Source: Escherichia phage vB_EcoM-P3322
Sequence record: PV191315.1
Strand: one strand, 5' to 3'
DNA length: 64,000 nucleotides
A model generated the notes under the pieces. It was given only the letters and a program-made list of their open reading frames with translations, was not told the origin of the DNA and ran no database searches. Both the position numbers and the translations under genes were made by a program. Of this stretch, positions 20,315 through 60,500 are shown in pieces (within the stretch, counting starts at the first letter, position 1; each line of letters begins with the position of its first letter).

Positions 20315-20551
20315 ATGGGTAAACTAATTATGACAGTGGCTATTGATTTTGATGAAGTAGATGAAAGCCTCAACCTTTCACTTTCTACTGACGTAGATGG
20401 CGAAATGGATAATATTGAAGCAGCTACTGCTCTTTTCTTCAAAAAAGCCATTGAAGTTTATGCCGAACATGCTGCAAATCAGGCAGTAGATTACGGTGGT
20501 ATCGTGCGAGCTTTAGTTCACTCTACCGAGGGCAATGACTGGGAAGATTAA
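20315..20551 (+). CDS. hypothetical acidic protein
   Basis: RBS AAGGAG. Confidence 0.5.
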   Translation: MGKLIMTVAIDFDEVDESLNLSLSTDVDGEMDNIEAATALFFKKAIEVYAEHAANQAVDYGGIVRALVHSTEGNDWED

Positions 20552-20754
20552 TGGCTTACAATTATTACTGCATTTATGCACATGAAAAGAAAAAAGGTGA
20601 CACTGGGACTAACGTTTATGCGGAGTCCGAATCTCATGCAAAAGAGATTGGTGCTATCCTTTTATCACGCTGGACTGGAAATAATTACAGTGCAGAAGAT
20701 ATGTTTGCAGAAGTGGATTCTAGAATCCAAGAAGACAACATAACAACTACGTGA
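20551..20754 (+). CDS. hypothetical protein
   Basis: ATG overlaps upstream stop. Confidence 0.5.
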   Translation: MAYNYYCIYAHEKKKGDTGTNVYAESESHAKEIGAILLSRWTGNNYSAEDMFAEVDSRIQEDNITTT

Positions 20755-36222: not shown

Positions 36223-36894
36223 CTATTTAATGTTCAGTCTGGCACACAAACGAGAAACAGTTTTAGCATCCCATTTACCACCACGTGCTGTTGCTATTTT
36301 CTTACTATTGAATTTTTCAGCAATAGTTTTGTAAGGGGTATTTAAATCTCTAAGGATCTCCAAGCGTTCACGGAATGTCTCTGCAAAAGCGTCTGCTTTA
36401 ACAGAATTGTATTCCATTTTTCCTTTTCTACGTGCAGCGGCAGTTTTAGGATTAGCACTGCCTAATAAAACACCTTTACTTTTTGCTACAGCAAGACCCT
36501 TTTTAATACGATCAGCAATACCTCTAACTTCTTGTTCAGCCAGAACAGACAGAAGCTGTATAACCATTTTATCTGCGTCTGGCATAATGGCTATCTTAAC
36601 ATCGATCATTTCTAGAAGAGTTGCTACGGAGGCGTTGTTACGACCCAAGCGGTCAACTTTAGCTACCAATAAAGTTGCTCCGGTAGCTTTACACATTTCA
36701 ACCGCTTTAACCAGTTCCTTACGTTGCTTCCAATCGCCCTTACCCGAATAGTATTCAGAAAATTGACCAATAACTTCCGCATCAGGCACAGAGTCTAAGA
36801 AGTAACGGATATCATTCTCTTGGCTCTCCATACCATATTGTGCCTCACCTTTTTTCTGTTTAGAAAGACGACTGTAAACAACAAACTTTTTCAT
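36223..36894 (-). CDS. serine recombinase (resolvase/invertase family)
   Basis: YSRLS (catalytic Ser region), VAKVDRLGRN, C-terminal HTH-like TARGGKW..TVSRL; ATG 36894 after AGGAGTGG. Confidence 0.75.
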   Translation of the reverse strand: MKKFVVYSRLSKQKKGEAQYGMESQENDIRYFLDSVPDAEVIGQFSEYYSGKGDWKQRKELVKAVEMCKATGATLLVAKVDRLGRNNASVATLLEMIDVKIAIMPDADKMVIQLLSVLAEQEVRGIADRIKKGLAVAKSKGVLLGSANPKTAAARRKGKMEYNSVKADAFAETFRERLEILRDLNTPYKTIAEKFNSKKIATARGGKWDAKTVSRLCARLNIK

Positions 36895-36914
36895 AACCAC
36901 TCCTAAACTATTGC

Positions 36915-46813: not shown

Positions 46814-48434
46814 GACAATCTCCTCTCATCGTTAGCCATCTTTCATGGCAATCATCAATCACCAACATCATACGATCAATCTCAGGGAATTACAATCGAA
46901 TTATCATAGGGGATTCCTATCAATTATCCCATATATACCGATTATTTTTGACACCCCACTCTTGTATAAAAAGTAACCCAAAATATCTACGGGGAGAGAT
47001 TATTTCGGGACACCCTGTTTCATGGCAATCATGGCAAGAATATCTAATAGAATCAATATCATATGGCAAAAATCATGACGCATACGTAAGAAGTGCTTAA
47101 CGCGAATTTTCGGGCCGTCAGGTCCACGCAGCGACAATTCCCAAATATCATGAGAATGAGAATAATTATCATTCGTATTCAATGACTTATGCAAGGCTCA
47201 TGCCAACATAGCGACAAGGTGGGCCACTTGATTATAAATCACACAAACACTTATTTATCAATAGGTTGGCAACTTCATCATATGACGGAACATTGTCAAC
47301 TGATCCCGCTCATGACAAGCAGACTATTATTTATATGAGAATGATTATTATTTAAACGTTTATTAACATAAAAATTAAAATAAATCAAGAATTTTCTGAT
47401 TTTATTTACGTTTAAGAGAAGATGCTCAACATCCTACCGGATCGCCGTTGGCAATCCTCGGATATTTACGCCCCCATGATTAAGGTTTATCTCTTTTCTT
47501 AGTGCTCAACATTCCCGCCCGTGGCGGTAACATTTCGCCCCCAAAATTATTGCTTTTTATTCTATTATGTGCATAGTGTGCAATGTATCGGAATGATGAT
47601 AATCATCCTCCCATTGCCCCCATAATTATTGCCATGCTAATGATTTCATCTTGTAATTACCACAATGATTATTGTTATTGCGCTAATGTTATGATCTTGG
47701 TAATTACATATAATGCTAATAATAAGCCAGCGCAATAAGTGTAAGCGTCATTACGCTTGCAATTATTGCAAGCTACGCAGTAACAAGAAATAACCATCAC
47801 CGATGGTTATGATTGTTGGGGTGTAGTTGGCTTATTATTAGCTCGCTATGTGTCCGGCATAGCGTGCTAATGATGATCCTGGGAATGATTCGTTTTGTAA
47901 TGATTTCATTCAGTCACTATTATGGCAATAGTTATTATTTTAATGGTTTCGTTTGTTATTGTTCGTTAGTTGGTTGTTTTGTCGTGTTATCGTTATCTTG
48001 CTTAGTATTCATCATGGTTTGATTGTTTGTCGTTATCAATCATCTTGCTATTATTCCTTTGATTATGATTAGTTTGCTTATTGTTTTAGGTTGTTGGTTA
48101 GTTAGTTGTTGCGAACTATTATCAACATTATAGTTATGCACTTATATTGCATAGATAAACATGGATAGATGATAATGGTTATCATTGAACTAGAAAAGAG
48201 GTAAAAGGGTGTTTTTGATGGTTTGTTGTTGGTTGTTGATCGATTTTAACCGCTATAAATGGCTCTCTAACAGCCTGTTACCCTGGGAGGTATGGTTATT
48301 CGTTTAATGGTTGATTAGCTCGATACCGCGATTTATTCAATTTTGTTCTGTGTCGGTTTTTCATAGGCGAAAGCTATCAACATTGTTCGGGCAAAAAGAA
48401 AGGGCGCTTGGTGCGCCCCTTGTTTTGTTGTCGC
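46814..48434. other. 1.6-kb ORF-poor region with iterons, palindromes and a GT-skewed tract; candidate origin/packaging/regulatory region
   Basis: No convincing ORF; direct repeats gctaatg..atcttg.taattac; perfect palindrome gcttgcaattattgcaagc; GT-rich low-complexity 47930-48130. Confidence 0.5.
48398..48429 (-). terminator. bidirectional hairpin terminator (copy 1 of AAGGGCGC-N5-GCGCCCTT)
   Basis: aaagggcgc-ttggt-gcgcccctt flanked by T/A runs. Confidence 0.6.
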
Positions 48435-49369: not shown

Positions 49370-49425
49370 TTTGTGGGCTTGCTGTATTGCTCGCCCTACG
49401 CAATAACTATAAGTTAACAGGAGAA
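49370..49425 (-). promoter_or_regulatory. PeSL-like unit (degenerate)
   Basis: gcccTACGcaataa core; weak stem gggc/gccc. Confidence 0.35.
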
Positions 49426-49435
49426 ATAAAGCAAG

Positions 49436-49669
49436 CTATTTTTTATAAAATTTTTCTGCTGTGATATTCTTCCCAGTAGGCTTAACCACTTGCAAGATCT
49501 TATCATGTGCCGAACGTCCAAAAGAGTAAGATCCGTACACGGTAAACCAATAATCCCCGTTCGGTTGAACGGTTACGGCGGCGTACGGTGTACCTCTTTC
49601 ATTATCCCCGATGAAGTGAGAAACATTACCGTTAACATTTGGTTTAGTGCTTTTAATTTGTTCGATCAT
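49436..49669 (-). CDS. hypothetical protein
   Basis: Track ORF preceded by PeSL-like unit. Confidence 0.6.
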   Translation of the reverse strand: MIEQIKSTKPNVNGNVSHFIGDNERGTPYAAVTVQPNGDYWFTVYGSYSFGRSAHDKILQVVKPTGKNITAEKFYKK

Positions 49670-49685
49670 GATATGACTCCTAAAT

Positions 49686-49748
49686 CAGGCGGGAAACATT
49701 CCCGCCCTACGTGATAAATGATAATGTAAGCGTGATCCGGTGTCAATA
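49686..49748 (-). promoter_or_regulatory. PeSL-like unit
   Basis: hairpin ggcgggaaacattcccgcc; rc TTGACA-17-TATCAT. Confidence 0.65.
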
Positions 49749-49887
49749 GGTAGGATTGTAAAGATTTGATAGTTTATCTCTTTGATGTTTTGTTGTTTGA
49801 TAGATGTTAGCTATCAATATATAGCGGGGTCGTCCGGTGATTATCTTCCCCTGCTCCCAGGTGCCGCCCGTTCAATAAGTATAACAA

Positions 49888-49913
49888 AAAACAGGACAAA
49901 AACAAGCCCTGTT
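49888..49913 (-). terminator. hairpin terminator (minus strand)
   Basis: aaacagg-acaaaaacaagc-cctgttt with T-run on minus. Confidence 0.45.
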
Positions 49914-49921
49914 TATTTATC

Positions 49922-50056
49922 TTAAAACCAGTTGCCAACCGTTTCCAATAGGTCACTGACTACCAGGACAACATTAATCAGCACATATTCAACCAGGAAG
50001 GGAATAAGCGCCAGCGTTGCTACTACGATCCCCATTGTGATGATTACCTTTCTCAT
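49922..50056 (-). CDS. small membrane peptide (44 aa)
   Basis: Below track threshold; ATG 2 nt after upstream stop; hydrophobic. Confidence 0.35.
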   Translation of the reverse strand: MRKVIITMGIVVATLALIPFLVEYVLINVVLVVSDLLETVGNWF

Positions 50057-50058
50057 GG

Positions 50059-50343
50059 TTAGCGGCTTACGTAAGCTTTACCGTTTACGGTCATCGGTAT
50101 GGCCTCAAGGTCTGGATCTTCCTTAAGGTCGCGTGCAAGCTCACCGCAGCGGATACCCTCGAATCCGTGGTATTCTGTCGCGCCGTCCTGGAAAGTTTTA
50201 GCGGCAAGGCATAGGCGATAATTAACACCGATCCGGTTTACCGCGTTGATATCGGTTAACGTGATGGATTCAGGCAAATCATTAGCCATTACAGGCGCGT
50301 TAATACCAACAACCAGGGCAACTACTGCGATCATCTTTTTCAT
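50059..50343 (-). CDS. small secreted protein (signal peptide)
   Basis: MKKMIAVVALVVGINAPVMA; PeSL-like hairpin upstream. Confidence 0.6.
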   Translation of the reverse strand: MKKMIAVVALVVGINAPVMANDLPESITLTDINAVNRIGVNYRLCLAAKTFQDGATEYHGFEGIRCGELARDLKEDPDLEAIPMTVNGKAYVSR

Positions 50344-50369
50344 GTGTCTATCCTCTTCCTATTGCGTTT

Positions 50370-50392
50370 AATGGGGGCGTTACCGCCCTGCT
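50370..50392 (-). promoter_or_regulatory. PeSL-like hairpin
   Basis: gggggcg-ttac-cgccc. Confidence 0.5.
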
Positions 50393-50398
50393 TATGGT

Positions 50399-50635
50399 TT
50401 ATTGATTGATGTTATAATGAAAATTATTTTCTTCAATAGCTTTTAAAATAAAAGCCGTGATCGCTTTCGTGTCTACTTGTTCGAACGTATCAGAATAGCA
50501 CCAATAATAATCATCCCCTACTTTCGGCGGGTAAACCTGGACAAGGAGATCGCCACCTGGTTGATCTATAAGCTCAACATGCAAGCCGGATGATTCAGCG
50601 GTTTTAACGGCGGTTAATACTGTTGCAATACTCAT
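50399..50635 (-). CDS. hypothetical protein
   Basis: Track ORF; hairpin upstream. Confidence 0.6.
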   Translation of the reverse strand: MSIATVLTAVKTAESSGLHVELIDQPGGDLLVQVYPPKVGDDYYWCYSDTFEQVDTKAITAFILKAIEENNFHYNINQ

Positions 50636-50652
50636 AATCTTTTCCTTTCTGA

Positions 50653-50672
50653 TGTGGGGCGTTGCCGCCCCT
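50653..50672 (-). promoter_or_regulatory. PeSL-like hairpin
   Basis: ggggcg-ttgc-cgcccc. Confidence 0.5.
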
Positions 50673-50679
50673 TTGTTGA

Positions 50680-50979
50680 TTAGATCGCTGTTTCCAGTAG
50701 TTCGGCTAACGTCTTACCGCCTGATAGTTGGTCTAACGTTTGCTCTTCTGGCAAGAAATTAGCTGATATTAATCCGACTTGATTTCCTTTGTGCCAATTA
50801 GCTTGACGGATGATTCCATCCTTTAAAGATTTTACCGCCATTGTGCAACCGTCGCCAAATGATTCATTTTTATGATCCATCACTTCATAAGCGCCCAGCT
50901 TGCTACTGTTAGGCACCATTAACGCGAATACATCACCAACAACCAGTTTTTCTACGGTAATAATAGCGATAGTTTCCAT
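50680..50979 (-). CDS. hypothetical protein
   Basis: RBS AGGAAAG; PeSL upstream. Confidence 0.6.
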   Translation of the reverse strand: METIAIITVEKLVVGDVFALMVPNSSKLGAYEVMDHKNESFGDGCTMAVKSLKDGIIRQANWHKGNQVGLISANFLPEEQTLDQLSGGKTLAELLETAI

Positions 50980-50985
50980 TTTACT

Positions 50986-51046
50986 TTCCTCATTATCGGC
51001 GGCACCATTGCCGCCCTACGTGGTAAATATTAGCACACTGGCGATC
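50986..51046 (-). promoter_or_regulatory. PeSL-like unit
   Basis: hairpin ggcggcaccattgccgcc; rc TTGACA at 51039-51044. Confidence 0.65.
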
Positions 51047-51060
51047 TGTGTCAATACTTT

Positions 51061-51447
51061 TTATTCAATATAAATCAAATTATCTTCACCAATGTAAGCC
51101 GACACGTTCGGCATAAACTTAGCTGCATTGGTTAGGCGGTTGGCTGTGTTAGTGGTGTATATTTCAGGGCGATCCCAAAAGCCTACGCCGTGACCGTTAC
51201 GGGTAAAATGTAAATCATTCCCGATCTGGTTGGCTGTTGCGCCGTCGCTCATTGCCTCAGAGATAGCGGCAAGATTAGCATTAATAAAGGCTGTTACATC
51301 CTGGGCGATCCGTTGATCTGCGCTAGGAGAAAAATCATAATCGTCTAAGTTATCAATAAAATTACCTTCATGATCCCTTGCTGATTCAGCAAAAATAAAG
51401 GCTTCTTTATAGCCGTTGATGATTTCAATAATGATTTCTGTTTTCAT
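51061..51447 (-). CDS. hypothetical protein (conserved HFTRNGHGVGFWDR motif)
   Basis: Track ORF, 128 aa. Confidence 0.6.
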   Translation of the reverse strand: MKTEIIIEIINGYKEAFIFAESARDHEGNFIDNLDDYDFSPSADQRIAQDVTAFINANLAAISEAMSDGATANQIGNDLHFTRNGHGVGFWDRPEIYTTNTANRLTNAAKFMPNVSAYIGEDNLIYIE

Positions 51448-51668
51448 GCTGTACGCTCGACAATAATAATAGTTTGCGGGATCTCGTTTTCTACTACTAA
51501 CAAGGCTTTTTTCTGTGTGATAGATATTTTAACACGTTGTAAAGTAGCGGTAAAATCTTTCATTTCATTATGCGCGGATTTAGTACAATGCCAGATCTCA
51601 GGCTTACCAACTTGTAAGCCGCGTAAAAATTCCGTTTTGCCTGTTTTGTTCGTGATCATTTGTTTCAC
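51444..51668 (-). CDS. hypothetical protein
   Basis: Track ORF, overlaps neighbours. Confidence 0.55.
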   Translation of the reverse strand: MKQMITNKTGKTEFLRGLQVGKPEIWHCTKSAHNEMKDFTATLQRVKISITQKKALLVVENEIPQTIIIVERTA

Positions 51669-51669
51669 C

Positions 51670-51774
51670 TTAACCGATACCGTGGGAAGATAGGATCATA
51701 TTAGCCATAGTTGCAACTACTCCAACCGATAACGCCAGGCCAACCACTGCAACCGTGAAAATTTTCTCTAACAT
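51670..51774 (-). CDS. small single-TM peptide (34 aa)
   Basis: ATG 51774 after GAGGGTAG, downstream of PeSL; track start 51873 reads through the hairpin. Confidence 0.45.
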   Translation of the reverse strand: MLEKIFTVAVVGLALSVGVVATMANMILSSHGIG

Positions 51775-51790
51775 GATTCTACCCTCATTA

Positions 51791-51856
51791 ATGGGCGTTG
51801 CACCATTGCCCCGCCCTACGTAATACACTTTACTAGATAACAAATTATTGTCAAGC
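51791..51856 (-). promoter_or_regulatory. PeSL-like unit
   Basis: hairpin gggcgttgcaccattgccccgccc; rc TTGACA at 51849-51854. Confidence 0.6.
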
Positions 51857-51857
51857 T

Positions 51858-51995
51858 TTATTTTACTTCCCAAACGGAAAATTCGCTGCCTGTTGGGATC
51901 ATTTTTTTAATCTTGTTTGCTGCCGCTACCAGGTCAACGGCTTGTACTGTAATAATATAACCAATTGTCGAGGCTGTTGCGTTGAAAGTTTTCAT
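51858..51995 (-). CDS. small hypothetical protein (45 aa)
   Basis: Below track threshold; RBS AAAGGG; perfect palindrome upstream. Confidence 0.35.
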   Translation of the reverse strand: MKTFNATASTIGYIITVQAVDLVAAANKIKKMIPTGSEFSVWEVK

Positions 51996-52012
51996 TATAT
52001 TGCCCTTTAATA

Positions 52013-52034
52013 CAGGCGGGATTAATCCCGCCTT
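52013..52034 (-). promoter_or_regulatory. perfect palindromic hairpin
   Basis: ggcgggattaatcccgcc. Confidence 0.5.
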
Positions 52035-52039
52035 TTTGA

Positions 52040-52210
52040 TTACTCTTCATTATCGCCGTTATAGTATTCAATGCCGTTTTCATCGGTTACGGTGATGTTA
52101 ACGCCACCGATAGCAACACGATCACGGGCAAACGTCATAGCTTCATTTAAATCTTCAGACCAAAAAATATTGTGACCTTTGCGCGATACATAAAACATAG
52201 TCGGGATCAT
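52040..52210 (-). CDS. hypothetical protein
   Basis: ATG 52210 after AGAAGAGAAA; track N-terminus reads through PeSL. Confidence 0.5.
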   Translation of the reverse strand: MIPTMFYVSRKGHNIFWSEDLNEAMTFARDRVAIGGVNITVTDENGIEYYNGDNEE

Positions 52211-52230
52211 GATTTGTTTCTCTTCTGTTA

Positions 52231-52296
52231 TGAGCGGTGGACCATTCCGCCGCCCTATGTGGTAAACTTTACTACGTTGTTTGCCTGCTGTCAAAC
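52231..52296 (-). promoter_or_regulatory. PeSL-like unit
   Basis: hairpin agcggtggaccattccgccgccc; rc TTGACA at 52289-52294. Confidence 0.6.
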
Positions 52297-52580
52297 TATT
52301 TTTTAATGTTTTGCCCTACAAAATCGATCACTTCCTTAAGCTGTCTCTCTGTCATGATCGTACCTGGTAACTCTTCTTTAATTTCTTCCGGTAAATAGAT
52401 ATTACCGCGCCAGGTTAACAAACAACCGTTTTGATCTTCGCAGATAGAATAAGAAAACATCCACTCGCAATCATTTTCAAGCTCCCAAAAACACAAAAAG
52501 TCTTCTTTCCCTAAGTTTTCAACGGTTAAACATAATCCGCGACGTGCTGCATAATTAGTTAGGCTTTTTGTGATTTTCAT
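52296..52580 (-). CDS. hypothetical protein
   Basis: ATG 52580 after AGAAGAGAGAAA. Confidence 0.55.
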   Translation of the reverse strand: MKITKSLTNYAARRGLCLTVENLGKEDFLCFWELENDCEWMFSYSICEDQNGCLLTWRGNIYLPEEIKEELPGTIMTERQLKEVIDFVGQNIKK

Positions 52581-52598
52581 GATTTTTCTCTCTTCTTG

Positions 52599-52659
52599 TG
52601 AGCGGCACCATTGCCGCCCTACAAGATACATATTACCAGATTAAGCGGACTTGTCAAAC
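52599..52659 (-). promoter_or_regulatory. PeSL-like unit
   Basis: hairpin agcggcaccattgccgccc; rc TTGACA-17-TAATAT. Confidence 0.65.
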
Positions 52660-52769
52660 TATTTTTTCTTTTTCTTTGCTTTCAATCGTCTAAGGTTACG
52701 GCTGGACTTATTGCGCAAGGCGCTTAGATCGTCGTACCCTTTCCATGCTTGCATATCTTTCGGATTCAT
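52659..52769 (-). CDS. small basic peptide (36 aa)
   Basis: Below track threshold; RBS AAGGGGATAAC; Lys-rich C-terminus. Confidence 0.35.
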   Translation of the reverse strand: MNPKDMQAWKGYDDLSALRNKSSRNLRRLKAKKKKK

Positions 52770-52778
52770 GTTATCCCC

Positions 52779-52940
52779 TTACTTGTTAGCCGGATCATAT
52801 ACCAGGACCGCGCCGCTTGCTTTCACGCTTTCCGCTTCATAGTTGCGCAGATCGTTTTCTGTAAGATTGAGCGCGATCACTTCCTCGATCTCAACGCCAG
52901 CGGCAAGGGCGATCTCTTTGATAATATCTGTTGTTTTCAT
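52779..52940 (-). CDS. hypothetical protein
   Basis: ATG 52940 after AAGGTG. Confidence 0.5.
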   Translation of the reverse strand: MKTTDIIKEIALAAGVEIEEVIALNLTENDLRNYEAESVKASGAVLVYDPANK

Positions 52941-52950
52941 GGTGTGCACC

Positions 52951-53070
52951 TTATAAGATGATTGATAAGATAGTGACAACGAAAGCGATTATACTGATGG
53001 CAAATGTCATCTTTTTACCTTCGGATACTGCCGGATTTTCTACCGTGTATTCTACTGTGTACTTGCTCAT
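52951..53070 (-). CDS. small single-TM peptide (39 aa)
   Basis: Below track threshold; RBS GAGAGGATTA; FAISIIAFVVTILSIIL. Confidence 0.4.
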   Translation of the reverse strand: MSKYTVEYTVENPAVSEGKKMTFAISIIAFVVTILSIIL

Positions 53071-53091
53071 CGTGTAATCCTCTCGTTTGCT

Positions 53092-53152
53092 TTGGGAACT
53101 ATTCCCGCCGCCCTATGAATTAAATATACACTATCTCAAAATGATTGCAAGC
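53092..53152 (-). promoter_or_regulatory. PeSL-like unit
   Basis: hairpin gggaactattcccgccgccc; rc TTGCAA -35. Confidence 0.55.
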
Positions 53153-53168
53153 CTTTTTCTAAATTATT

Positions 53169-53453
53169 TTATTCAGTAAACAAACCATCATTTACAACGG
53201 CGGCGATGATCTCCCGTGCCATTGATTCAGGGAAAGGGGCGCTATAGTCCTGGCTTGTCTCATCGGTATCGGTGATCCAATGATAAGCTAACGAGTAAAA
53301 GCCTTTACTAACTGTTTTCAGTGAGATGATGATCACTCGGTCAAGCTTATTGGTGAATGTTGCCGTTAATGTGTTACCCTCCTGCGTCATGTTGGACAAG
53401 TAAGCGAGATCATTAATCAGGGAAAACATTAGCACGGTGTTAGCTTTACTCAT
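53169..53453 (-). CDS. hypothetical protein
   Basis: ATG 53453 after GAGGATG. Confidence 0.55.
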   Translation of the reverse strand: MSKANTVLMFSLINDLAYLSNMTQEGNTLTATFTNKLDRVIIISLKTVSKGFYSLAYHWITDTDETSQDYSAPFPESMAREIIAAVVNDGLFTE

Positions 53454-53468
53454 GATTGCATCCTCAAA

Positions 53469-53529
53469 GGGGCGCGGCACCATTGCCGCCCTACACGATA
53501 ACTATAACACAATGTAAAACAGGGTCAAC
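53469..53529 (-). promoter_or_regulatory. PeSL-like unit
   Basis: hairpin gcgcggcaccattgccgccc; rc TTGACC -35. Confidence 0.6.
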
Positions 53530-53731
53530 CTTTATTTTTCCACGGTGTCAGCTTGTTAATCATTGGTGATAAATAGCGTTTACCAACGTAAAACAGTACG
53601 CCAACTGATGCAACGGCGGCGACCTCATGCATAGCCGACGGGAAACGGGTATCATAATAAGATCCAATAATAGCAATAGCGGCAACGGCTGCAACGTCGA
53701 TAATGATTTTCTCTTGTTTTGCGGTGATCAT
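53525..53731 (-). CDS. small two-TM membrane protein
   Basis: RBS AAAAAGG; hydrophobic segments. Confidence 0.55.
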   Translation of the reverse strand: MITAKQEKIIIDVAAVAAIAIIGSYYDTRFPSAMHEVAAVASVGVLFYVGKRYLSPMINKLTPWKNKG

Positions 53732-53750
53732 AGTATTTACCTTTTTGTAT

Positions 53751-53811
53751 GGTGGGGAACTATTCCCCGCCTGATGTAATACAGTTTAACAGGTCCGGTT
53801 ATGGTGTCAAC
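53751..53811 (-). promoter_or_regulatory. PeSL-like unit
   Basis: hairpin ggggaactattccccgcc; rc TTGACA at 53804-53809. Confidence 0.6.
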
Positions 53812-53816
53812 CACTT

Positions 53817-54002
53817 TTAAAGATATTTTATGCTAATGACGTTTTCAGGTTTTACCTTGTTATAATGTGCATCAACATAGATCAAACCATCGTCAGAAAA
53901 GCCCAGGATCACGCCCTGCGCGATAAAACCGTACTCGTCACGGTAACGCACGGCTATTTTTAATGTTGCGTTGTAGGCTGTTTTAAGCTCGTTTAAAGTC
54001 AT
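53817..54002 (-). CDS. hypothetical protein
   Basis: RBS AGAGGATAA. Confidence 0.55.
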   Translation of the reverse strand: MTLNELKTAYNATLKIAVRYRDEYGFIAQGVILGFSDDGLIYVDAHYNKVKPENVISIKYL

Positions 54003-54029
54003 TTTTGTTTATCCTCTACATGTAAAAAG

Positions 54030-54051
54030 AAAGGGCGCTTGATGCGCCCTT
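54030..54051 (-). terminator. hairpin terminator (copy 3 of AAGGGCGC-N5-GCGCCCTT)
   Basis: aaagggcgc-ttgat-gcgccctt. Confidence 0.55.
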
Positions 54052-54057
54052 GTTATG

Positions 54058-54204
54058 TTAATCCTCTAAATCCATCCAATTATATTTGTCACTCTTCCCG
54101 CGCTTTGTTTTATTACGCTTGTCACCTTTGCGGATCACTTCCTCGTTCCAGGCCTTGCGGATCTTGGAAGATTGAATTTTTTCTGCGCGATTAGATGTAT
54201 TCAT
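54058..54204 (-). CDS. small basic protein (48 aa)
   Basis: Below track threshold; RBS AAGAGGAAAC. Confidence 0.4.
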   Translation of the reverse strand: MNTSNRAEKIQSSKIRKAWNEEVIRKGDKRNKTKRGKSDKYNWMDLED

Positions 54205-54220
54205 TTTGTTTCCTCTTTAT

Positions 54221-54279
54221 ATGAGCGGCACCATTGCCGCTATATTGTTAATTTAAACTGTTTTGTAAAATTGTCAAGG
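54221..54279 (-). promoter_or_regulatory. PeSL-like unit
   Basis: hairpin gagcggcaccattgccgct; rc TTGACA at 54272-54277. Confidence 0.6.
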
Positions 54280-54283
54280 TTTA

Positions 54284-54637
54284 TCATTCATAAGAGCAAG
54301 CAAGGATCACGCCTGCAATATAAAGCCAATAATTTTCCCTTTCTCGTTGGATTTTATCATCGCTGCTATTCTCTTTAATGTATCCCCAGGATGTTAACAA
54401 GCGATCAATTTCCCAATATTCGAAAGCTATATTAATATCTGATGGCAAACCTTGTAACCATGATGCAAGTGCTTTAACAATACTATAATTAAAACGTGAT
54501 TGATTATCAGGGTACCAGTACTCGGAATTAAAACGGCGCATCAATTCCGCGATCTTCTCTTTTTCGGTTGTAATACCGTAATCATTAAAATCGATAGCGG
54601 CAAGGATGTACTCTTTAATTGCATTTTGTGCTTTCAT
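54284..54637 (-). CDS. hypothetical protein
   Basis: RBS AAGAGAGAAAG. Confidence 0.6.
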   Translation of the reverse strand: MKAQNAIKEYILAAIDFNDYGITTEKEKIAELMRRFNSEYWYPDNQSRFNYSIVKALASWLQGLPSDINIAFEYWEIDRLLTSWGYIKENSSDDKIQRERENYWLYIAGVILACSYE

Positions 54638-54652
54638 GGTCTTTCTCTCTTT

Positions 54653-54714
54653 TTAGCGGGAACTATTCCCGCCCTACGTGTAACAGTTTACTGAAAATTA
54701 AATCCGTGTCAAGC
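54653..54714 (-). promoter_or_regulatory. PeSL-like unit
   Basis: hairpin agcgggaactattcccgcc; rc TTGACA at 54707-54712. Confidence 0.65.
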
Positions 54715-54715
54715 T

Positions 54716-54937
54716 TTATTTTGTTACTACCATTTGGTACCCTGTTTCAATGTTAGTAAATACTGTTATCCCGTCCTGGCGTTCACTCATTAGCATACAA
54801 GGCGCTAACATCCTTTCTACTGCCTTGCACTCATTGTAAACGGCGGTTATGTCTCCTGCGGCCTTGTCTTCTGTGGTGAATGTATCGTTTATGTAAACTT
54901 GACTAGCGACAACGGCGACAATAGCGAAAGTGATCAT
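54716..54937 (-). CDS. small secreted protein (signal-peptide-like)
   Basis: RBS AAAGAGAAA; MITFAIVAVVASQVY. Confidence 0.55.
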   Translation of the reverse strand: MITFAIVAVVASQVYINDTFTTEDKAAGDITAVYNECKAVERMLAPCMLMSERQDGITVFTNIETGYQMVVTK

Positions 54938-55010
54938 GATATTTTTCTCTTTATGTGTTTCTATTAGTTGATATTACAGCAATTCGCAGATTATTTTTTA
55001 GCAATTCGTG

Positions 55011-55229
55011 CTATTTACTCATAACAGTATCGAAAACAAATTTTTCTTTGTTGTCAAAGCTCACGTATCCGATTCTACCACGCAAGCCGCAAGTAGTGCC
55101 GTATTCGTAACCGTCAAGACCTTTAACCTTCCAATCCACGCCCATTAAAACCGCATTATATTTCTGACCAACTACAAACGCGCCACCAGTTGATTCAATG
55201 CAAACAACTTTAATTTTACGGATTGCCAT
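55011..55229 (-). CDS. hypothetical protein
   Basis: RBS AGAAAGAGAGAAAG. Confidence 0.55.
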   Translation of the reverse strand: MAIRKIKVVCIESTGGAFVVGQKYNAVLMGVDWKVKGLDGYEYGTTCGLRGRIGYVSFDNKEKFVFDTVMSK

Positions 55230-55267
55230 TTTCTTTCTCTCTTTCTGGTGATTGGTTTCTCTTCTCT

Positions 55268-55310
55268 ATAGCGCCCATTGTAAGGCGCTATAACGAAAAG
55301 TCAACGATTA
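55268..55310 (-). promoter_or_regulatory. variant promoter/hairpin unit
   Basis: hairpin tatagcgcc-cattgtaa-ggcgctata; rc TTGACT -35. Confidence 0.45.
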
Positions 55311-55475
55311 TTTTTTAAGGCTTAAAGTACCTAACTTGTCAGCATGACGCAGACCAGGGAATATCCATTTGCCTGACTCATCTTTCACCGGGGCTTTAAG
55401 CGTAGCGCCCAGGTTGGCGGCGTTAACTTTACGTGCAACGTTGCGAGCGGCTTCACGGGTAGCGAAAGTGATCAT
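55308..55475 (-). CDS. small hypothetical protein (55 aa)
   Basis: Below track threshold; RBS GAGGAAAACACC. Confidence 0.4.
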   Translation of the reverse strand: MITFATREAARNVARKVNAANLGATLKAPVKDESGKWIFPGLRHADKLGTLSLKK

Positions 55476-55497
55476 GGTGTTTTCCTCTTCTCTTTGT

Positions 55498-55563
55498 TAG
55501 GCGGTGGACCATTCCGCCGCCTTGATGTAATACAGTTTACTTTATTTTATTAAGATTGCAAGC
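55498..55563 (-). promoter_or_regulatory. PeSL-like unit
   Basis: hairpin ggcggtggaccattccgccgcc; rc TTGCAA -35. Confidence 0.6.
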
Positions 55564-55567
55564 GGTT

Positions 55568-55783
55568 TTATGAAATAATTGTCAAAGTAAAATCATAAGA
55601 CTGATTTAATTTATATTGTACTTTATTGCCGTAGTAGTCACCTTTACGTAAAGATCCGCGAATACCTATCACATCCTTTACATCTTTAAGATTTTTTACG
55701 CCTGTAATGTCTTTATTGAAATACTCGTCATCTGAAAATAAAACTTGACTTGCATTTTTTAACAGTGTACGGATATTAGCCAT
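55568..55783 (-). CDS. hypothetical protein
   Basis: RBS AGAAGAGAGATTA. Confidence 0.55.
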   Translation of the reverse strand: MANIRTLLKNASQVLFSDDEYFNKDITGVKNLKDVKDVIGIRGSLRKGDYYGNKVQYKLNQSYDFTLTIIS

Positions 55784-55805
55784 CGTGATAATCTCTCTTC
55801 TGTTG

Positions 55806-55866
55806 TGAGCGGCACTATTGCCGCCCTACGTAATACAGTTTACTCTTTTTCTTTCCGGTGTCAACA
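55806..55866 (-). promoter_or_regulatory. PeSL-like unit
   Basis: hairpin gagcggcactattgccgccc; rc TTGACA-16-TAAACT. Confidence 0.65.
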
Positions 55867-55873
55867 ATCTTTT

Positions 55874-56101
55874 TCAGATTAATTCATCCAGGCATAACAG
55901 GCGATCAACGTTGAGATCGGTTAGGCTGATGGTTGGCACCTGGTAGGATTCGATGTACTCGACGCTTGCATATTCCCCAAAATTAGCAACAGCCCACTTA
56001 TTCAAGATCTCACATACATCATTAATCTTTTTGTTTGTTACAACTGCAATGACCTGGGAAGTGCCAACGGTGCCGGATACGCGAACAATATTGATAGCCA
56101 T
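55874..56101 (-). CDS. hypothetical protein
   Basis: RBS AGAGAGATTAAAG. Confidence 0.55.
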   Translation of the reverse strand: MAINIVRVSGTVGTSQVIAVVTNKKINDVCEILNKWAVANFGEYASVEYIESYQVPTISLTDLNVDRLLCLDELI

Positions 56102-56120
56102 AATCTTTAATCTCTCTGTT

Positions 56121-56184
56121 TTGGCGGGAAACCACTTCCCGCCCTATGTGATACATCTTACACTAATTTTAAACGTTGTCAACT
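56121..56184 (-). promoter_or_regulatory. PeSL-like unit
   Basis: hairpin ggcgggaaaccacttcccgccc; rc TTGACA at 56177-56182. Confidence 0.65.
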
Positions 56185-56191
56185 GTTTTTA

Positions 56192-56431
56192 TTACATTCC
56201 AACCATCGCGGCACGGATCGCAGTAGTGCTATATTTGAAACCGTCTGGCGTTTTATCTTGTCCAGTTTGTTCCAGAAAAAGCATCATATCCCGCGCCGCA
56301 TCATTACGATTAGCATTAGCGTTAATAAAATCTTGGGCCAACCGGTATAACGATTCATCGTTATTAATCCAAAGGCTTACATTCCAATGAGTTTTGTTTT
56401 TGTGACCGTTGTACATTTTAGATTTAGCCAT
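56192..56431 (-). CDS. hypothetical protein
   Basis: RBS AAAGAGAGAAAA. Confidence 0.55.
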   Translation of the reverse strand: MAKSKMYNGHKNKTHWNVSLWINNDESLYRLAQDFINANANRNDAARDMMLFLEQTGQDKTPDGFKYSTTAIRAAMVGM

Positions 56432-56452
56432 GATTTTTCTCTCTTTTTCAGT

Positions 56453-56516
56453 GAGGCGGGAAGTGTTCCCGCTCTCTATGTAATACAGTTTACTCTTTTT
56501 ATTCGTGCTGTCAATG
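56453..56516 (-). promoter_or_regulatory. PeSL-like unit
   Basis: hairpin gaggcgggaagtgttcccgctctc; rc TTGACA at 56509-56514. Confidence 0.6.
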
Positions 56517-56520
56517 CTTT

Positions 56521-56886
56521 TTATAAATCTTTTTTACGTTTTACATCGCTCGCATGACTGTATACAGTGATCCCATTGTCACGGCAAAAACGGGAAAGAT
56601 ACGCGCCGCGTGAAAACTCTTTACCTTCCATATTAATAACCTTGCTAAATTCTTCTAGGGCAACGGTATCAAAATGATCCCCATAGCCATATTGAAACGG
56701 AACGTTAACTACTTCGATCAGTTTACCGCCGATCTCAACATCAACCATCAAAGAGAAATAAGTATTACCATAAGACTTTTGAAACCAGCGACGGGCGCTA
56801 ATATGTACCGCTTCAATGCTGGATAGTTCAATTTTAGCAGTGTTAGCCAGGGTAGCATAAGCAGAAACATTGATATTTTTAGCCAT
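56521..56886 (-). CDS. hypothetical protein
   Basis: RBS AAGAGATTAAAG. Confidence 0.6.
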   Translation of the reverse strand: MAKNINVSAYATLANTAKIELSSIEAVHISARRWFQKSYGNTYFSLMVDVEIGGKLIEVVNVPFQYGYGDHFDTVALEEFSKVINMEGKEFSRGAYLSRFCRDNGITVYSHASDVKRKKDL

Positions 56887-56909
56887 AGTCTTTAATCTCT
56901 TTTGATTAG

Positions 56910-56964
56910 TTAGGAGTATTCCCGATAAAAGTTATTATGCTTATACTATCACTCATTGTCAATA
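56910..56964 (-). promoter_or_regulatory. PeSL-like unit (degenerate hairpin)
   Basis: rc TTGACA at 56957-56962; truncated ggagtattcccg. Confidence 0.4.
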
Positions 56965-56981
56965 GTATAAGACTAAAACTT

Positions 56982-57161
56982 TTAACGATAATCGTTATAG
57001 GCTTTATTGACCTGGCGAATGTAACATTCGAAAGCAAGATCAATGTATTCGTATTCACGCACATAATCACCATAGGTCACTACATACATTTTTAAAGTTT
57101 CCTCATAAGCCAGGAGGATCGAATCTAAACCTATAATCTCAGTTTTTGCAATGATAGCCAT
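56982..57161 (-). CDS. small hypothetical protein (59 aa)
   Basis: Below track threshold; RBS AAAGG. Confidence 0.4.
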   Translation of the reverse strand: MAIIAKTEIIGLDSILLAYEETLKMYVVTYGDYVREYEYIDLAFECYIRQVNKAYNDYR

Positions 57162-57179
57162 GATGTTAACCTTTTATTG

Positions 57180-57240
57180 TTGGCGGCACCATTGCCGCCC
57201 TACGTGATAAACTATACCAGAATTTTAAACAGTGTCAACC
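57180..57240 (-). promoter_or_regulatory. PeSL-like unit
   Basis: hairpin ggcggcaccattgccgcc; rc TTGACA at 57233-57238. Confidence 0.65.
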
Positions 57241-57244
57241 GTTT

Positions 57245-57607
57245 TTATTCGTAAATTTTACCGCTTTCGGCCCATACCATAACGCGGCGCATACTATCCC
57301 AAGTGTTTTGATCCAAGTTTAAGCCGTGCAACTCTTCGGTACTTCCCAGACCAGGTACCGCTTTGTTGTAAGTTGCATATAAGCGCCCTTGATACTCATA
57401 CGCCAGAGTAAGATCCGTTTGAATCATCTTTTTAAGCATAGCATTAAGCATCATATTAGCGGCATGTTGATCACGTTTTAGCGGTAACATATCAATAAGG
57501 GCGCGATAAGCTGAAACATGAATATCAACCGTTTCACGTGGTAAATTTTTCATATCATCACGGAAAGATACCAGATTAAACATGATAGTATTGATTTGCT
57601 TGCTCAT
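57245..57607 (-). CDS. hypothetical protein
   Basis: RBS AAAGGGTAA. Confidence 0.6.
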   Translation of the reverse strand: MSKQINTIMFNLVSFRDDMKNLPRETVDIHVSAYRALIDMLPLKRDQHAANMMLNAMLKKMIQTDLTLAYEYQGRLYATYNKAVPGLGSTEELHGLNLDQNTWDSMRRVMVWAESGKIYE

Positions 57608-57626
57608 TGTGTTACCCTTTTTTGTT

Positions 57627-57691
57627 TTGGCGGGGAAGTATTCCGCCGCCCTATGTGATACATCTTACCAGATTAAAAAACGTTGTCAAGA
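57627..57691 (-). promoter_or_regulatory. PeSL-like unit
   Basis: hairpin ggcggggaagtattccgccgccc; rc TTGACA at 57684-57689. Confidence 0.65.
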
Positions 57692-57698
57692 ATATTTT

Positions 57699-57794
57699 TT
57701 AGAAAATAATAACCGCTACTACAACCCAAAATGGAACGGCTAGAATGATAGCGTTAATCGTTCCAACCGTCAAGCTATTTTCTTTATTAATCAT
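57699..57794 (-). CDS. small single-TM peptide (31 aa)
   Basis: Below track threshold; RBS AAGAGGCTTACA; AIILAVPFWVVVAVIIF. Confidence 0.4.
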   Translation of the reverse strand: MINKENSLTVGTINAIILAVPFWVVVAVIIF

Positions 57795-57820
57795 TGTAAG
57801 CCTCTTGCATAATTTCACTA

Positions 57821-57883
57821 TTAGCGGCACCATTGCCGCCCTACGTGGTAAATATTATGCCAGTGGCGGCGATATGTCAAAGA
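57821..57883 (-). promoter_or_regulatory. PeSL-like unit
   Basis: hairpin agcggcaccattgccgcc; rc TTGACA at 57876-57881. Confidence 0.65.
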
Positions 57884-58434
57884 CTATTTTCAAAGTTTTC
57901 TAGTGCGATCCTTTTTTCTTCCTCTGTTGGCTGATAATCAGGAAAAGCATCAACACACAACAACGGCGGGATCTCTTCGTACTCTTCCTCTTCCGTTGTC
58001 TCCTCGTCTTCCTCCTGGGCTATGGCTGCAATTTTGGCTAATTTTCTTTCAGCTTGAATCAATTTACCATCAAGTACGTTTTTTGCCATGTTGTAAGCGG
58101 TCCAGGTGATGCGCTTACTTTCCAATGCTTCATCAAGCGCCGCTATCTTGCTGGGGTATTCATCCAGGACACGAAAAGCCGGATCAATTTTGTACAAAGG
58201 ATTATCTTTCGCGCCGTCGCTCGCATCTTCCGCACTGGATAAATCAGCGTTACCATTTGCCAGCCAGCCAGGGCGCACATAACGCGCTTTTACGTTGCCG
58301 TTACTACGTGCTAATCTGTTACCTATTTGCTCACCGCTATATCCCGTGGATTCATCGATAAGATGATCGGGAATGATGCGCGGATCATCTGCTTCATGTT
58401 TTACCCAAGACTGGATCACATATTCGCGGCCCAT
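57877..58434 (-). CDS. hypothetical protein with acidic C-terminal tail
   Basis: ATG 58434 after AAGGTGG. Confidence 0.6.
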   Translation of the reverse strand: MGREYVIQSWVKHEADDPRIIPDHLIDESTGYSGEQIGNRLARSNGNVKARYVRPGWLANGNADLSSAEDASDGAKDNPLYKIDPAFRVLDEYPSKIAALDEALESKRITWTAYNMAKNVLDGKLIQAERKLAKIAAIAQEEDEETTEEEEYEEIPPLLCVDAFPDYQPTEEEKRIALENFENSL

Positions 58435-58435
58435 A

Positions 58436-58693
58436 TTAACCACCTTTTTTCAACAATTGGCATACTTTAAAAAGACTTGCTGAATCCTTGCAAGGGTAGA
58501 AAGATGTACGATAATCACGTACGCCAACCTTGCGGATCTCGATGTTTTCGCATGTTGTTTGATCAAAGATATTTATTTCATCACGCCCCCTTATATAAAC
58601 ATAGTGGGGATGTATTAACGCATATTTTGCTAATCTGTAAAAAGCGTTATCTTTGAACGCGATCACGTGACCTTTTAATTTGATGTAAAACAT
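58436..58693 (-). CDS. hypothetical protein
   Basis: RBS AAGGTGG. Confidence 0.55.
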   Translation of the reverse strand: MFYIKLKGHVIAFKDNAFYRLAKYALIHPHYVYIRGRDEINIFDQTTCENIEIRKVGVRDYRTSFYPCKDSASLFKVCQLLKKGG

Positions 58694-58707
58694 TCTACCA
58701 CCTTACA

Positions 58708-58767
58708 AATAGCGGGAACTATTCCCGCTTTATGTAACATATTAACAAATTATTCGTTAATGTCAAG
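58708..58767 (-). promoter_or_regulatory. PeSL-like unit
   Basis: hairpin agcgggaactattcccgct; rc TTGACA at 58760-58765. Confidence 0.65.
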
Positions 58768-58769
58768 CC

Positions 58770-59042
58770 TTAAAGCAAAAACGCTACATCTTGCGCTTTT
58801 AGTGTAGTATCAACCATTTTCGGGCTTTTATAATCAACAAAGCGCGCGGTTTTTTCAATAGCGAAACCGAGATAATCTTGCTTGTTGAAATTACATTCTT
58901 TCTTAAATGTTTCCCGTGCAATGGCAATCGCTGCGTCCAGGGATAAACGCCCGTCAATATTGATATTAGCGAAAGATCCGCCACCGCTCATAGGTTTACC
59001 AGTGGTGCCAGCTACGATCATTGTTGCGCTATATGATGCCAT
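58770..59042 (-). CDS. hypothetical protein
   Basis: RBS AGAAGAGAGATTA. Confidence 0.6.
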   Translation of the reverse strand: MASYSATMIVAGTTGKPMSGGGSFANINIDGRLSLDAAIAIARETFKKECNFNKQDYLGFAIEKTARFVDYKSPKMVDTTLKAQDVAFLL

Positions 59043-59064
59043 GATGATAATCTCTCTTCTGTTA

Positions 59065-59128
59065 CGAGCGGGAAACCACTTCCCGCCCTATGTGATACAT
59101 CTTATCAGGTTGTTGTTTGTTGTCAATA
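59065..59128 (-). promoter_or_regulatory. PeSL-like unit
   Basis: hairpin agcgggaaaccacttcccgccc; rc TTGACA at 59121-59126. Confidence 0.65.
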
Positions 59129-59132
59129 CTTT

Positions 59133-60119: not shown

Positions 60120-60500
60120 CATTCTCTAAATGAGAATGATTATCATTTACCTTATCAAATAAGAATCAATCTCATTTATAAACCTAAATGCGAATCATTA
60201 TCATTTGCATTTCCATATGAGAACTCTTCTCATTCCCATCTGCATAAATTTTTGTAAACTTTAAATTTTGCTTTTGTACTTTCATTTTTGTAAAAGCAAA
60301 AAAACTTTAAATACTGTGGGCGCGCAAAATTTTTAAAATTTTCCTTGACTTTTGAGTTTTGTTTTGTATCTAACATTTTAAGATAATTTTCCTAAACTTT
60401 AAATTTTGGTTTTCAACTTTCACTTTTGTAAATTCTTAAAAAGTTTAAATAATTTGAGGAATTTTTGAGATAACAAGTAGGGGTAATTTGAGATAACCTT
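60120..60500. repeat. AT-rich iteron cluster
   Basis: Direct repeats aaactttaaattttgNttttNNactttcaNttttgtaaa x2; aatgattatcattt x2; tttgagataac x2. Confidence 0.5.

Follow-up and report, generated by a model that had tools for sequence, protein, structure and literature searches.

An array of promoter-plus-hairpin cassettes near a genome end of Escherichia phage vB_EcoM-P3322, apparently a convergent counterpart of the PeSLs of T4-type phages

Repeated regulatory cassettes known as PeSLs (promoter-early stem-loops) have been described in the T4-type phages RB49/phi1, PST/T4 and nt-1/KVP40 (Arbiol et al. 2010, PMC2839356; Comeau et al. 2014, PMC4122927). By definition a PeSL combines a sigma70 promoter with a stem-loop, for which five positions are possible, between a stop codon lying in AT-rich sequence and a Shine-Dalgarno (SD) sequence with an ATG; such units are concentrated in hyperplastic regions, where recombination between them leads to indels and mini-circles (PMC2839356). 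In RB49/phi1 most hairpins are located within the promoter, and terminator activity was demonstrated there; a PeSL stem-loop placed between promoter and lacZ cut expression about as much as rrnB T1 did (PMC2839356). This literature covers T4-type phages only and comes from one group. Here we analyse a 64,000-nucleotide (nt) stretch of Escherichia phage vB_EcoM-P3322 (PV191315.1), hereafter the window, in which 22 promoter/hairpin cassettes with small open reading frames (ORFs) occupy positions 49373..59132 on the minus strand and point leftwards, towards the genome terminus. We consider it probable that these are early-gene cassettes whose leader hairpin acts at the RNA level and whose repetition gives rise to homology-based shuffling of the genes they carry.

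Reading of the strand together with a promoter scan revealed 22 sigma70-type promoters, all on the minus strand, with -35 boxes starting from 49,434 to 59,126. They match the consensus at 10-11 of 12 positions: the -35 box is exactly TTGACA in 19 of them and TTGACA-like in the rest, the spacer measures 16-17 nt and the -10 box reads TAnnnT. Directly upstream of each promoter is an A-rich tract in which the preceding ORF ends (TAA plus an A run). In 20 of the 22 units, a GC-rich leader hairpin of 7-10 base pairs (bp), TAGGGCGG...CCGCY, is found 11-13 nt past the -10 box, from which it is separated by a short conserved stretch, GTATCAC or TTACCAC, and then a purine. The CCGCC or CCGCT arm is followed by a purine-rich leader of 17-28 nt with an SD and by the ATG. 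In the remaining two units (-35 at 56,962 and 55,304), a perfect inverted repeat of 9 bp encloses the -35 or the -10 box and takes the place of the leader hairpin. The regulatory cassette is roughly 70-100 nt long and present in ~22 copies, a total that rises from 22 to 27 if five promoter-less hairpins in the array are added. An initial annotation, made from the letters alone, had described about 24 repeated minus-strand units of sigma70-like promoter, transcribed-side GC-rich hairpin, ribosome-binding site and ORF; the repetition and strand hold, the count does not, and the order of elements was borne out in 20 units. The same annotation had called the segment visibly GC-richer than the rest of the window, which is true only weakly (40.9% in the array versus 38.5% in the remainder). 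The cassettes are listed below with the ORFs, sized in amino acids (aa), that they are predicted to drive; the number in each handle is the start of the -35 box.

59064..59132, minus strand: cassette u59126, TTGACA-16-TAAGAT, hairpin GGGCGGGAA/TTCCCGCTC; 90-aa ORF (58770-59042)
58708..58772, minus strand: cassette u58766, hairpin AGCGGGAA-TAG-TTCCCGCT; 85-aa and 185-aa ORFs
57820..57886, minus strand: cassette u57880, 17-nt spacer, hairpin GGCGGCA-ATGG-TGCCGCT; 31-aa ORF
57626..57695, minus strand: cassette u57689, hairpin GGCGG.GGAA-TAC-TTCCCCGCC; 120-aa ORF
57179..57244, minus strand: cassette u57238, top covariance-model score (81 bits); 59-aa ORF
56934..56971, minus strand: variant u56962, 9-bp repeat CTTATACTA/TAGTATAAG around the -35 box, without leader hairpin; 121-aa ORF
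56451..56520, minus strand: cassette u56514, hairpin GAG.GCGGGAA-CAC-TTCCCGCCTC; 79-aa ORF
56120..56188, minus strand: cassette u56182; 75-aa ORF
55805..55870, minus strand: cassette u55864; 71-aa ORF; recombination partner of u55561 in phage nieznany
55497..55567, minus strand: cassette u55561, -35 box TTGCAA, hairpin GGCGGCGGA-ATGG-TCCACCGCC; 55-aa ORF
55267..55304, minus strand: variant u55304, 9-bp repeat TATAGCGCC/GGCGCTATA around the -10 box (TACAAT); 72-aa ORF
54652..54718, minus strand: cassette u54712; 117-aa ORF
54221..54283, minus strand: cassette u54277; 48-aa homologue of T7 gene 1.1 (54061-54204), then an intrinsic terminator
53752..53816, minus strand: cassette u53810; 68-aa ORF
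53470..53534, minus strand: cassette u53528; ORF ending at 53169, likely start 53453
53089..53150, minus strand: cassette u53150, -35 box TTGCAA, weak hairpin GGGAA-TAG-TTCCC; not caught by the covariance model
52598..52663, minus strand: cassette u52657; 94-aa ORF; recombination partner of u51054 in nieznany
52230..52300, minus strand: cassette u52294; 56-aa ORF
51791..51860, minus strand: cassette u51854; 34-aa hydrophobic peptide and two more ORFs; module common to FV3 and phi92
50995..51060, minus strand: cassette u51054; 99-aa ORF
49685..49752, minus strand: cassette u49746; 77-aa ORF
49373..49440, minus strand: cassette u49434, -35 box TTGCTT, divergent hairpin GGGC..GC-AATACA-GC..GCCC; 122-aa ORF

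For the 20 raw units, MAFFT and RNAalifold gave no consensus structure, owing to misalignment of the 3' arms. The covariance model, built from six units of equal length and complemented by a model-guided realignment, recovered 19 units (E<0.05), which all lie on the minus strand between 49,373 and 59,132; the remainder of the 64-kb window holds no further match at E<1. The exact TAGGGCGG occurs 14 times, always on the minus strand and within 49.7-59.1 kb, and an independent repeat finder recovered the same unit families. The two variant cassettes, u56962 and u55304, were read straight from the sequence. A scan of 47-61 kb with Rfam 15 returned no family match and one chance snoRNA match (E=0.83).

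The array region is 95-99% identical to Mt1B1_P17, tuntematon, ECO340P1 and many other Escherichia phages of the genus Phapecoctavirus, and vB_EcoM-P3322 is a Phapecoctavirus (Stephanstirmvirinae), that is, a phAPEC8-like myovirus of about 150 kb and not a T4-type phage. The first 334 nt of the Mt1B1_P17 record map to 47,099-47,432 of the window, and so do its last ~330 nt; therefore, this interval is the direct terminal repeat and marks the physical genome end. The array thus starts ~1 kb inside the genome end and is transcribed towards the terminus, a layout matched in phi92, where the terminal repeat is annotated. A homologue of T7 early gene 1.1 within the array supports its reading as an early region.

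Evidence for shuffling comes from collinear BLAST chains of the region against seven relatives. These contain many deletions, insertions and replacements, and the ends of their high-scoring segment pairs overlap by 8-77 nt, a hallmark of repeats having recombined. For three junctions the sequence was checked base by base. Nieznany is devoid of 51,066-52,602 and has in its place one chimeric cassette that corresponds to u52657 through GTAGGGCGGCAATGGTGCCGC and to u51054 thereafter; it also lacks 55,547-55,782, with a crossover in AGTAAACTGTATTAC and one chimeric cassette remaining. PNJ1809-36 and PsgM04F are without 49,409-49,703, where a crossover in CGTAGGGCG has likewise left one chimeric cassette. 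The three crossover intervals, namely the -10/discriminator stretch, the whole hairpin and CGTAGGGCG, share no common point, and other junctions lie at SD-ATGGCTA microhomology (56,886/57,154) or in two similar promoter-less hairpins (50,388/50,656), a scatter that fits general homologous recombination rather than a site-specific enzyme. Among the replacements, that of 51,819-52,663 has cassettes at both ends; that of 57,246-58,001 has its left end in a cassette and its right end in coding sequence, ~110 nt from u57880. Between more distant phages, cassette-plus-ORF modules of FV3 (Vequintavirinae) show 87-95% nt identity to phi92 and to vB_EcoM-P3322 in another order, and the amino-acid identity of neighbouring ORFs of vB_EcoM-P3322 and phi92 ranges from 34% to 97%. 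The same ORF can be found with or without its own cassette in different phages, and the 59-aa ORF of u57238 is missing from ZCKP1 and PNJ1809-36. Taken together, these comparisons show the cassettes to be places of gene swapping, deletion and insertion between relatives, and the chimeric junctions show that recombination between cassettes moves cassette-plus-ORF modules; the initial annotation had mentioned such shuffling of accessory genes for PeSLs.

Five neighbouring minus-strand ORFs (56886, 56431, 56101, 55783 and 57161) share an ATGGCTA start (Met-Ala-Ile/Lys/Asn), and the leaders before them are near-identical (AGAGAGATTAAAGAYT / AGAGAGATTATCAYS). Cassette homology therefore reaches into the first codons and serves as a crossover site there (56,886/57,154). 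Of the five promoter-less hairpins in the array, two are true terminators with U tracts (54,031-54,051 and 49,889-49,914), and several coincide with junctions in relatives:

54031..54051, minus strand: promoter-less hairpin with U tract, an intrinsic terminator within the array (terminator scan)
52014..52033, minus strand: promoter-less intergenic hairpin GGCGGGATTAATCCCGCC; indel breakpoint in ZCKP1
50656..50671, minus strand: promoter-less intergenic hairpin GGGGCGGCAACGCCCC; recombines with the hairpin at 50374-50389 in ZCKP1
50374..50389, minus strand: promoter-less intergenic hairpin AGGGCGGTAACGCCCC
49889..49914, minus strand: terminator-like hairpin with U tract; insertions of 200-489 nt here in five relatives

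Several lines of evidence bear on whether the leader hairpin is an RNA element. As the initial annotation anticipated, the leaders fold: 17 of 19 valid leaders reach z <= -2.2 against dinucleotide shuffles, a statistic that leaves out the leader of u53528, for which the coordinates were wrong. In the predicted transcript the hairpin begins at nt 3-7 and the SD is unpaired. When 98 distinct cassettes of 19 sources are aligned, canonical pairs occupy 98.8% of pair cells; one inner pair is C-G in 54 and G-C in 31, and at the outermost position 41 cassettes have G·U, 39 have G-C and 11 have A-U. A G·U pair on the sense strand corresponds to a C·A mismatch on the other strand, and the sense fold is the more stable in 15 of 20 units. 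Between the invariant GGCGG and CCGCY the spacing ranges over 8-13 nt, and the inner stem shows compensatory changes (CA/TG, GAA/TTC, GGA/TCC). Moreover, in phiWec179 and phi92 the orthologues of ORFs behind u59126, u56182, u54712 and u52657 often have an unchanged promoter and a different hairpin variant; the 75-aa ORF of u56182, for instance, is found in phiWec179 at 99% aa identity behind another hairpin. It is therefore the presence of a hairpin that is maintained, not one sequence, which speaks against a rigid DNA operator. These data support the hairpin as a structure selected on the sense strand. A terminator scan of the minus strand flagged none of the 20 leader hairpins, the tails of which are A-rich; a U tract follows on neither strand. 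A conserved pyrimidine-purine step lies 7-8 nt past the -10 box, and initiation there would put only 2-3 unpaired nt ahead of the stem, against 5-6 if transcription began at the A two bases upstream. Since 5'-terminal stem-loops protect E. coli mRNAs from 5'-end-dependent decay (review PMC3997798, citing work of the Belasco laboratory), we infer that the most likely function of the hairpin is that of an mRNA stabiliser in the 5' leader, acting at the RNA level.

The array would then constitute the terminal early-gene region of a phAPEC8-like myovirus, with ~22 regulatory cassettes whose near-consensus sigma70 promoters could be read by unmodified host RNA polymerase. Judging from its sequence, each cassette would make its gene or genes an autonomous and strongly expressed early unit. 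The GC-rich hairpin would form the 5' end of the transcript, followed by an unstructured purine-rich leader with the SD, and would presumably shield early mRNAs from 5'-end-dependent decay (RppH/RNase E). On read-through transcripts the same hairpin would be intercistronic and may block 3' exonucleases, while probably not acting as an efficient terminator. Given their close similarity, the cassettes can serve general homologous recombination, whether within a genome or between co-infecting relatives; the comparative junctions show that this deletes, inserts, replaces and reorders modules while the genes stay unbroken.

A number of observations weigh against this explanation. The energy gap between sense and antisense folds is only ~1 kcal/mol, and the covariation comes from 2-3 pairs in paralogous, non-independent copies whose alignment was fitted to the model. 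With 2-6 unpaired 5' nt, protection of the E. coli type would be weak at the upper end, and some attenuation by the hairpins may occur here too, given the effect of the PeSL stem-loop in RB49 (PMC2839356). Our search of the literature on Phapecoctavirus and rV5-like phages found no transcriptome and no transcript 5' ends, timing or half-lives; the terms 'early', 'transcribed hairpin' and 'stabiliser' accordingly stand for predictions. Breakpoints, finally, are less informative than they seem: 15 of 33 unique breakpoints fall in cassette cores, which span 17.5% of the region (p=2e-4), but compared with non-coding positions alone there is no enrichment in cassettes (10/16 versus 67.5% expected), and selection against gene-breaking indels would by itself put breakpoints there. 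The chimeric junctions are thus the real evidence for recombination, not the breakpoint statistics.

Two other accounts of the inverted repeat concern gene expression. Its main role might be to terminate or attenuate transcription and so shield each unit from upstream read-through, as proposed and partly shown for PeSLs. The lacZ result with the PeSL stem-loop (PMC2839356), the location of the hairpins between consecutive ORFs and the true terminators in the same array speak for such a role, which we nevertheless hold to be unlikely: no U tract follows any of the 20 leader hairpins, whose tails are A-rich, and several cassettes drive ORFs that have no other promoter. Efficient termination at the hairpin would cut short the unit's own transcript at about +30, since each hairpin follows the promoter of its cassette. 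Termination as the main function was set aside on these grounds of missing U tract and position, though it may occur as a minor effect. Alternatively, the repeat could be a DNA operator at +5 to +25, through which a dimeric phage or host protein shuts off the early promoters together. Coordinated early-gene shut-off is to be expected in a large lytic phage, and the GGCGG/CCGCC half-sites are nearly invariant and stand at a fixed distance from the -10 box, in the classical roadblock position. Yet the half-sites are 8 to 13 nt apart, with compensating inner stems; in ~40% of copies the 3' half-site reads CCGCT, so that RNA pairing persists through G·U but the DNA palindrome is broken; the sense strand folds better than the antisense strand; and orthologous genes carry interchangeable hairpin variants. 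An operator is, on balance, rather improbable.

The hairpins might also be sites for a dedicated recombinase, folded in the manner of attC, which would make the array a gene-capture system like an integron. Small single-gene cassettes that each bear an imperfect palindrome give it that appearance, and a small serine recombinase (Resolvase domain, E=5e-18) is encoded 12.5 kb away; such a protein was speculated upon for PeSLs by Arbiol et al. (PMC2839356). We regard this as very unlikely, because the three sequenced crossover intervals have no common point, other junctions lie at microhomology or promoter-less hairpins, and the array holds no attC-type conserved core sites. The serine recombinase is the only recombinase found, with no adjacent tyrosine integrase, and the locus does not pass as an integron. 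Site-specific recombination was judged unlikely, as the crossover intervals do not coincide. A bolder proposal, to which we grant a slim chance, is that the hairpin, with its invariant GGCGG/CCGCY base and AAURGU-like loop, is the recognition element of a phage factor, the whole being an actively managed platform for gene capture and expression across Stephanstirmvirinae and Vequintavirinae. Candidates for the factor would be the small serine recombinase or an RNA-binding regulator, and the array would then not be a passive by-product of homologous recombination. The recombinase gene is as follows:

36223-36900, minus strand: serine recombinase ORF, 223 aa, PF00239 E=5e-18

This recombinase is encoded in a strictly lytic phage, and in relatives it is variously annotated as 'methionine ABC transporter ATP-binding protein', 'DNA invertase' or 'recombinase'.

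The region contains 35 ORFs of 31-185 aa, about 33 of them counted within the array, with one to four ORFs per unit; the size class announced by the initial annotation (30-190 aa) is confirmed, its single ORF per unit is not, since some units drive 2-4. Its statement that almost none has a recognisable function also proved right. Only two of the 35 ORFs match Pfam, one the T7 early gene 1.1 family (54,061-54,204) and the other DUF7249, and the PHROG matches of array ORFs each belong to a different family, all of them function-unknown. For the ORF behind u53528, relatives annotate as start the ATG at 53483, which is the AUG in the hairpin loop (GGCGGCAAUGGUGCCGC); the ATG at 53453, with a GAGGA SD, is the likelier real start. 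In Phapecoctavirus, Justusliebigvirus and Vequintavirus the 34-aa hydrophobic peptide MLEKIFTVAVVGLALSVGVVATMANMILSSHGIG (51673-51774, minus strand) is 91-100% conserved, in contrast to its widely varying neighbours.

The window and its relatives were searched for further copies, with none elsewhere in the 64 kb, arrays in Mt1B1_P17 and phi92, and copies in FV3 and phiTE. In the complete 151-kb genome of Mt1B1_P17, 19 of 20 model matches fall in the syntenic 10 kb. BLAST with one unit retrieved 151 phage records, including Phapecoctavirus, Justusliebigvirus (phi92) and Vequintavirinae (FV3, phiTE and others), and with the covariance model phi92 yielded at least 13 copies, phiTE two and FV3 several. 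When IMG/VR was scanned for the exact pattern, multi-copy arrays appeared only in rV5/phAPEC8-like contigs of 137-153 kb, the other matches being mostly single and unrelated. The lone Mt1B1_P17 copy outside the array, at ~35.84 kb of the record (20538-20604 of the fetched piece, plus strand), lies directly upstream of a gene for a TerC-like membrane protein, as if this accessory gene had been supplied with a portable cassette. Eleven GC-rich viral contigs of IMG/VR (14-41 kb) have a single TTGACA promoter followed by TAGGGCGGG(G)AGAATCCC(C)GCC; they show the same promoter-then-leader-hairpin design with a similar stem and seem to stem from unrelated small phages.

The flanks of the array have features of their own. 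Between terminal repeat and array (47433-48400) lies ~1 kb of non-coding DNA with odd short T/G-rich repeats. Just past the array, in a non-coding and locally GC-rich region, two 72-nt direct repeats (60247-60318 and 60385-60456) are 82% identical. A 29-nt repeat with a ATGAGAATGATTAT core flanks the array on both sides (47326-47354 and 60121-60149, 12.8 kb apart). These flanking repeats are possibly related to origin or packaging. Over the array region, the records named Campylobacter phage B15, Klebsiella phage ZCKP1 and Pseudomonas phage PsgM04F share 88-97% identity with E. coli phapecoctaviruses, and their host labels should be treated with caution.

Relative to PeSLs, what is new here is an independent sequence, another lineage (the rV5/phAPEC8/phi92 supergroup) and a hairpin moved into the transcript. 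The unrelated sequence, together with the same architecture and recombination footprints, suggests a convergent solution, in which promoter-plus-hairpin cassettes would be a general way for large lytic phages to express and exchange accessory early genes. With ~280 related genomes sequenced, and many of these phages candidates for therapy, the shuffling can be quantified and is open to experiment. The cassettes mark where therapeutic phages may gain or lose unknown genes for host takeover or anti-defence, and could serve as compact strong early expression units in phage engineering. They also explain some annotation errors, in that promoters have been listed without their hairpins and at least one start codon has been called in a hairpin loop.

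Among systems outside the T4-type phages, Bacillus phage SPO1 reportedly carries a host-takeover module in its terminal redundancy, with about two dozen very small early genes (Stewart et al. 1998). The array resembles that module in being a terminal early-gene cluster with many closely spaced, unusually strong promoters for the host sigma factor; the SPO1 module is not known to have a conserved leader hairpin or cassette-mediated shuffling. The ompA and papA leaders and the T7 phi10 leader (PMC3997798) share with the cassettes a stable hairpin a few nt from the 5' end followed by an open ribosome-binding site; unlike these single gene-specific leaders, one hairpin family is here fused to a promoter in more than 20 copies, and its stabilising role is a prediction. 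Integron cassettes likewise form arrays of small, mostly function-unknown single-gene units divided by imperfect palindromes, but they are promoter-less and are moved by a tyrosine integrase at folded attC sites, whereas each cassette here has its own promoter, attC core sites are missing and crossovers are scattered. The morons of lambdoid phages (Hendrix et al. 2000, cited in PMC2839356) are also autonomous promoter-gene-(terminator) units with accessory genes; in contrast to the present cassettes, they are solitary, lack shared flanking homology and are thought to arrive by illegitimate recombination. For Phapecoctavirus and rV5-like phages, we found no description of the cassettes in the literature, and prior mention in the phi92 and PVP-SE1 genome papers is possible; in the rV5 paper the listed promoters stop just past the -10 box and the hairpins go unmentioned, and papers on Phapecoctavirus merely give counts of predicted promoters and terminators.

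The closest counterparts are therefore the PeSLs themselves, to which the initial annotation had matched the array. Anatomy and behaviour at chimeric junctions agree: in both cases a composite unit of ~75-100 nt joins an A-rich stop tract, a sigma70 promoter, a stem-loop, a conserved leader, an SD and an ATG, recurs at high density in a plastic region made up of small ORFans and gives chimeric cassettes at indel junctions between relatives. The two units with a stem-loop around the -35 or -10 box even resemble the commonest PeSL subclasses. Membership, on the other hand, does not hold, this being a Phapecoctavirus whose units are unrelated in sequence to those of RB49. The latter read TAAAAAGTTGTTGACA-GGGGATCnnnGATCCCC-TATAAT-ACACCCATACCGAAACGAA-GGAGAATCAAA-ATG, with the pattern TTGACA-GGGGATC..GATCCCC-TATAAT, and the covariance model found no match in 40 kb of the RB49 plastic region (best E 1.7). 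Homology to the RB49 PeSLs was rejected after direct comparison, with no shared sequence and another hairpin position; the element is therefore a PeSL analogue and not a homologue. Unlike PeSLs, it belongs to Stephanstirmvirinae/Vequintavirinae and not to Straboviridae, and 20 of its 22 hairpins lie in the transcribed leader, without a U tract and with signs of selection at the RNA level. By sequence, these cassettes thus appear to be a convergent variant of PeSLs that, from an unrelated element in another phage lineage, seems to arrive at the same outcome.

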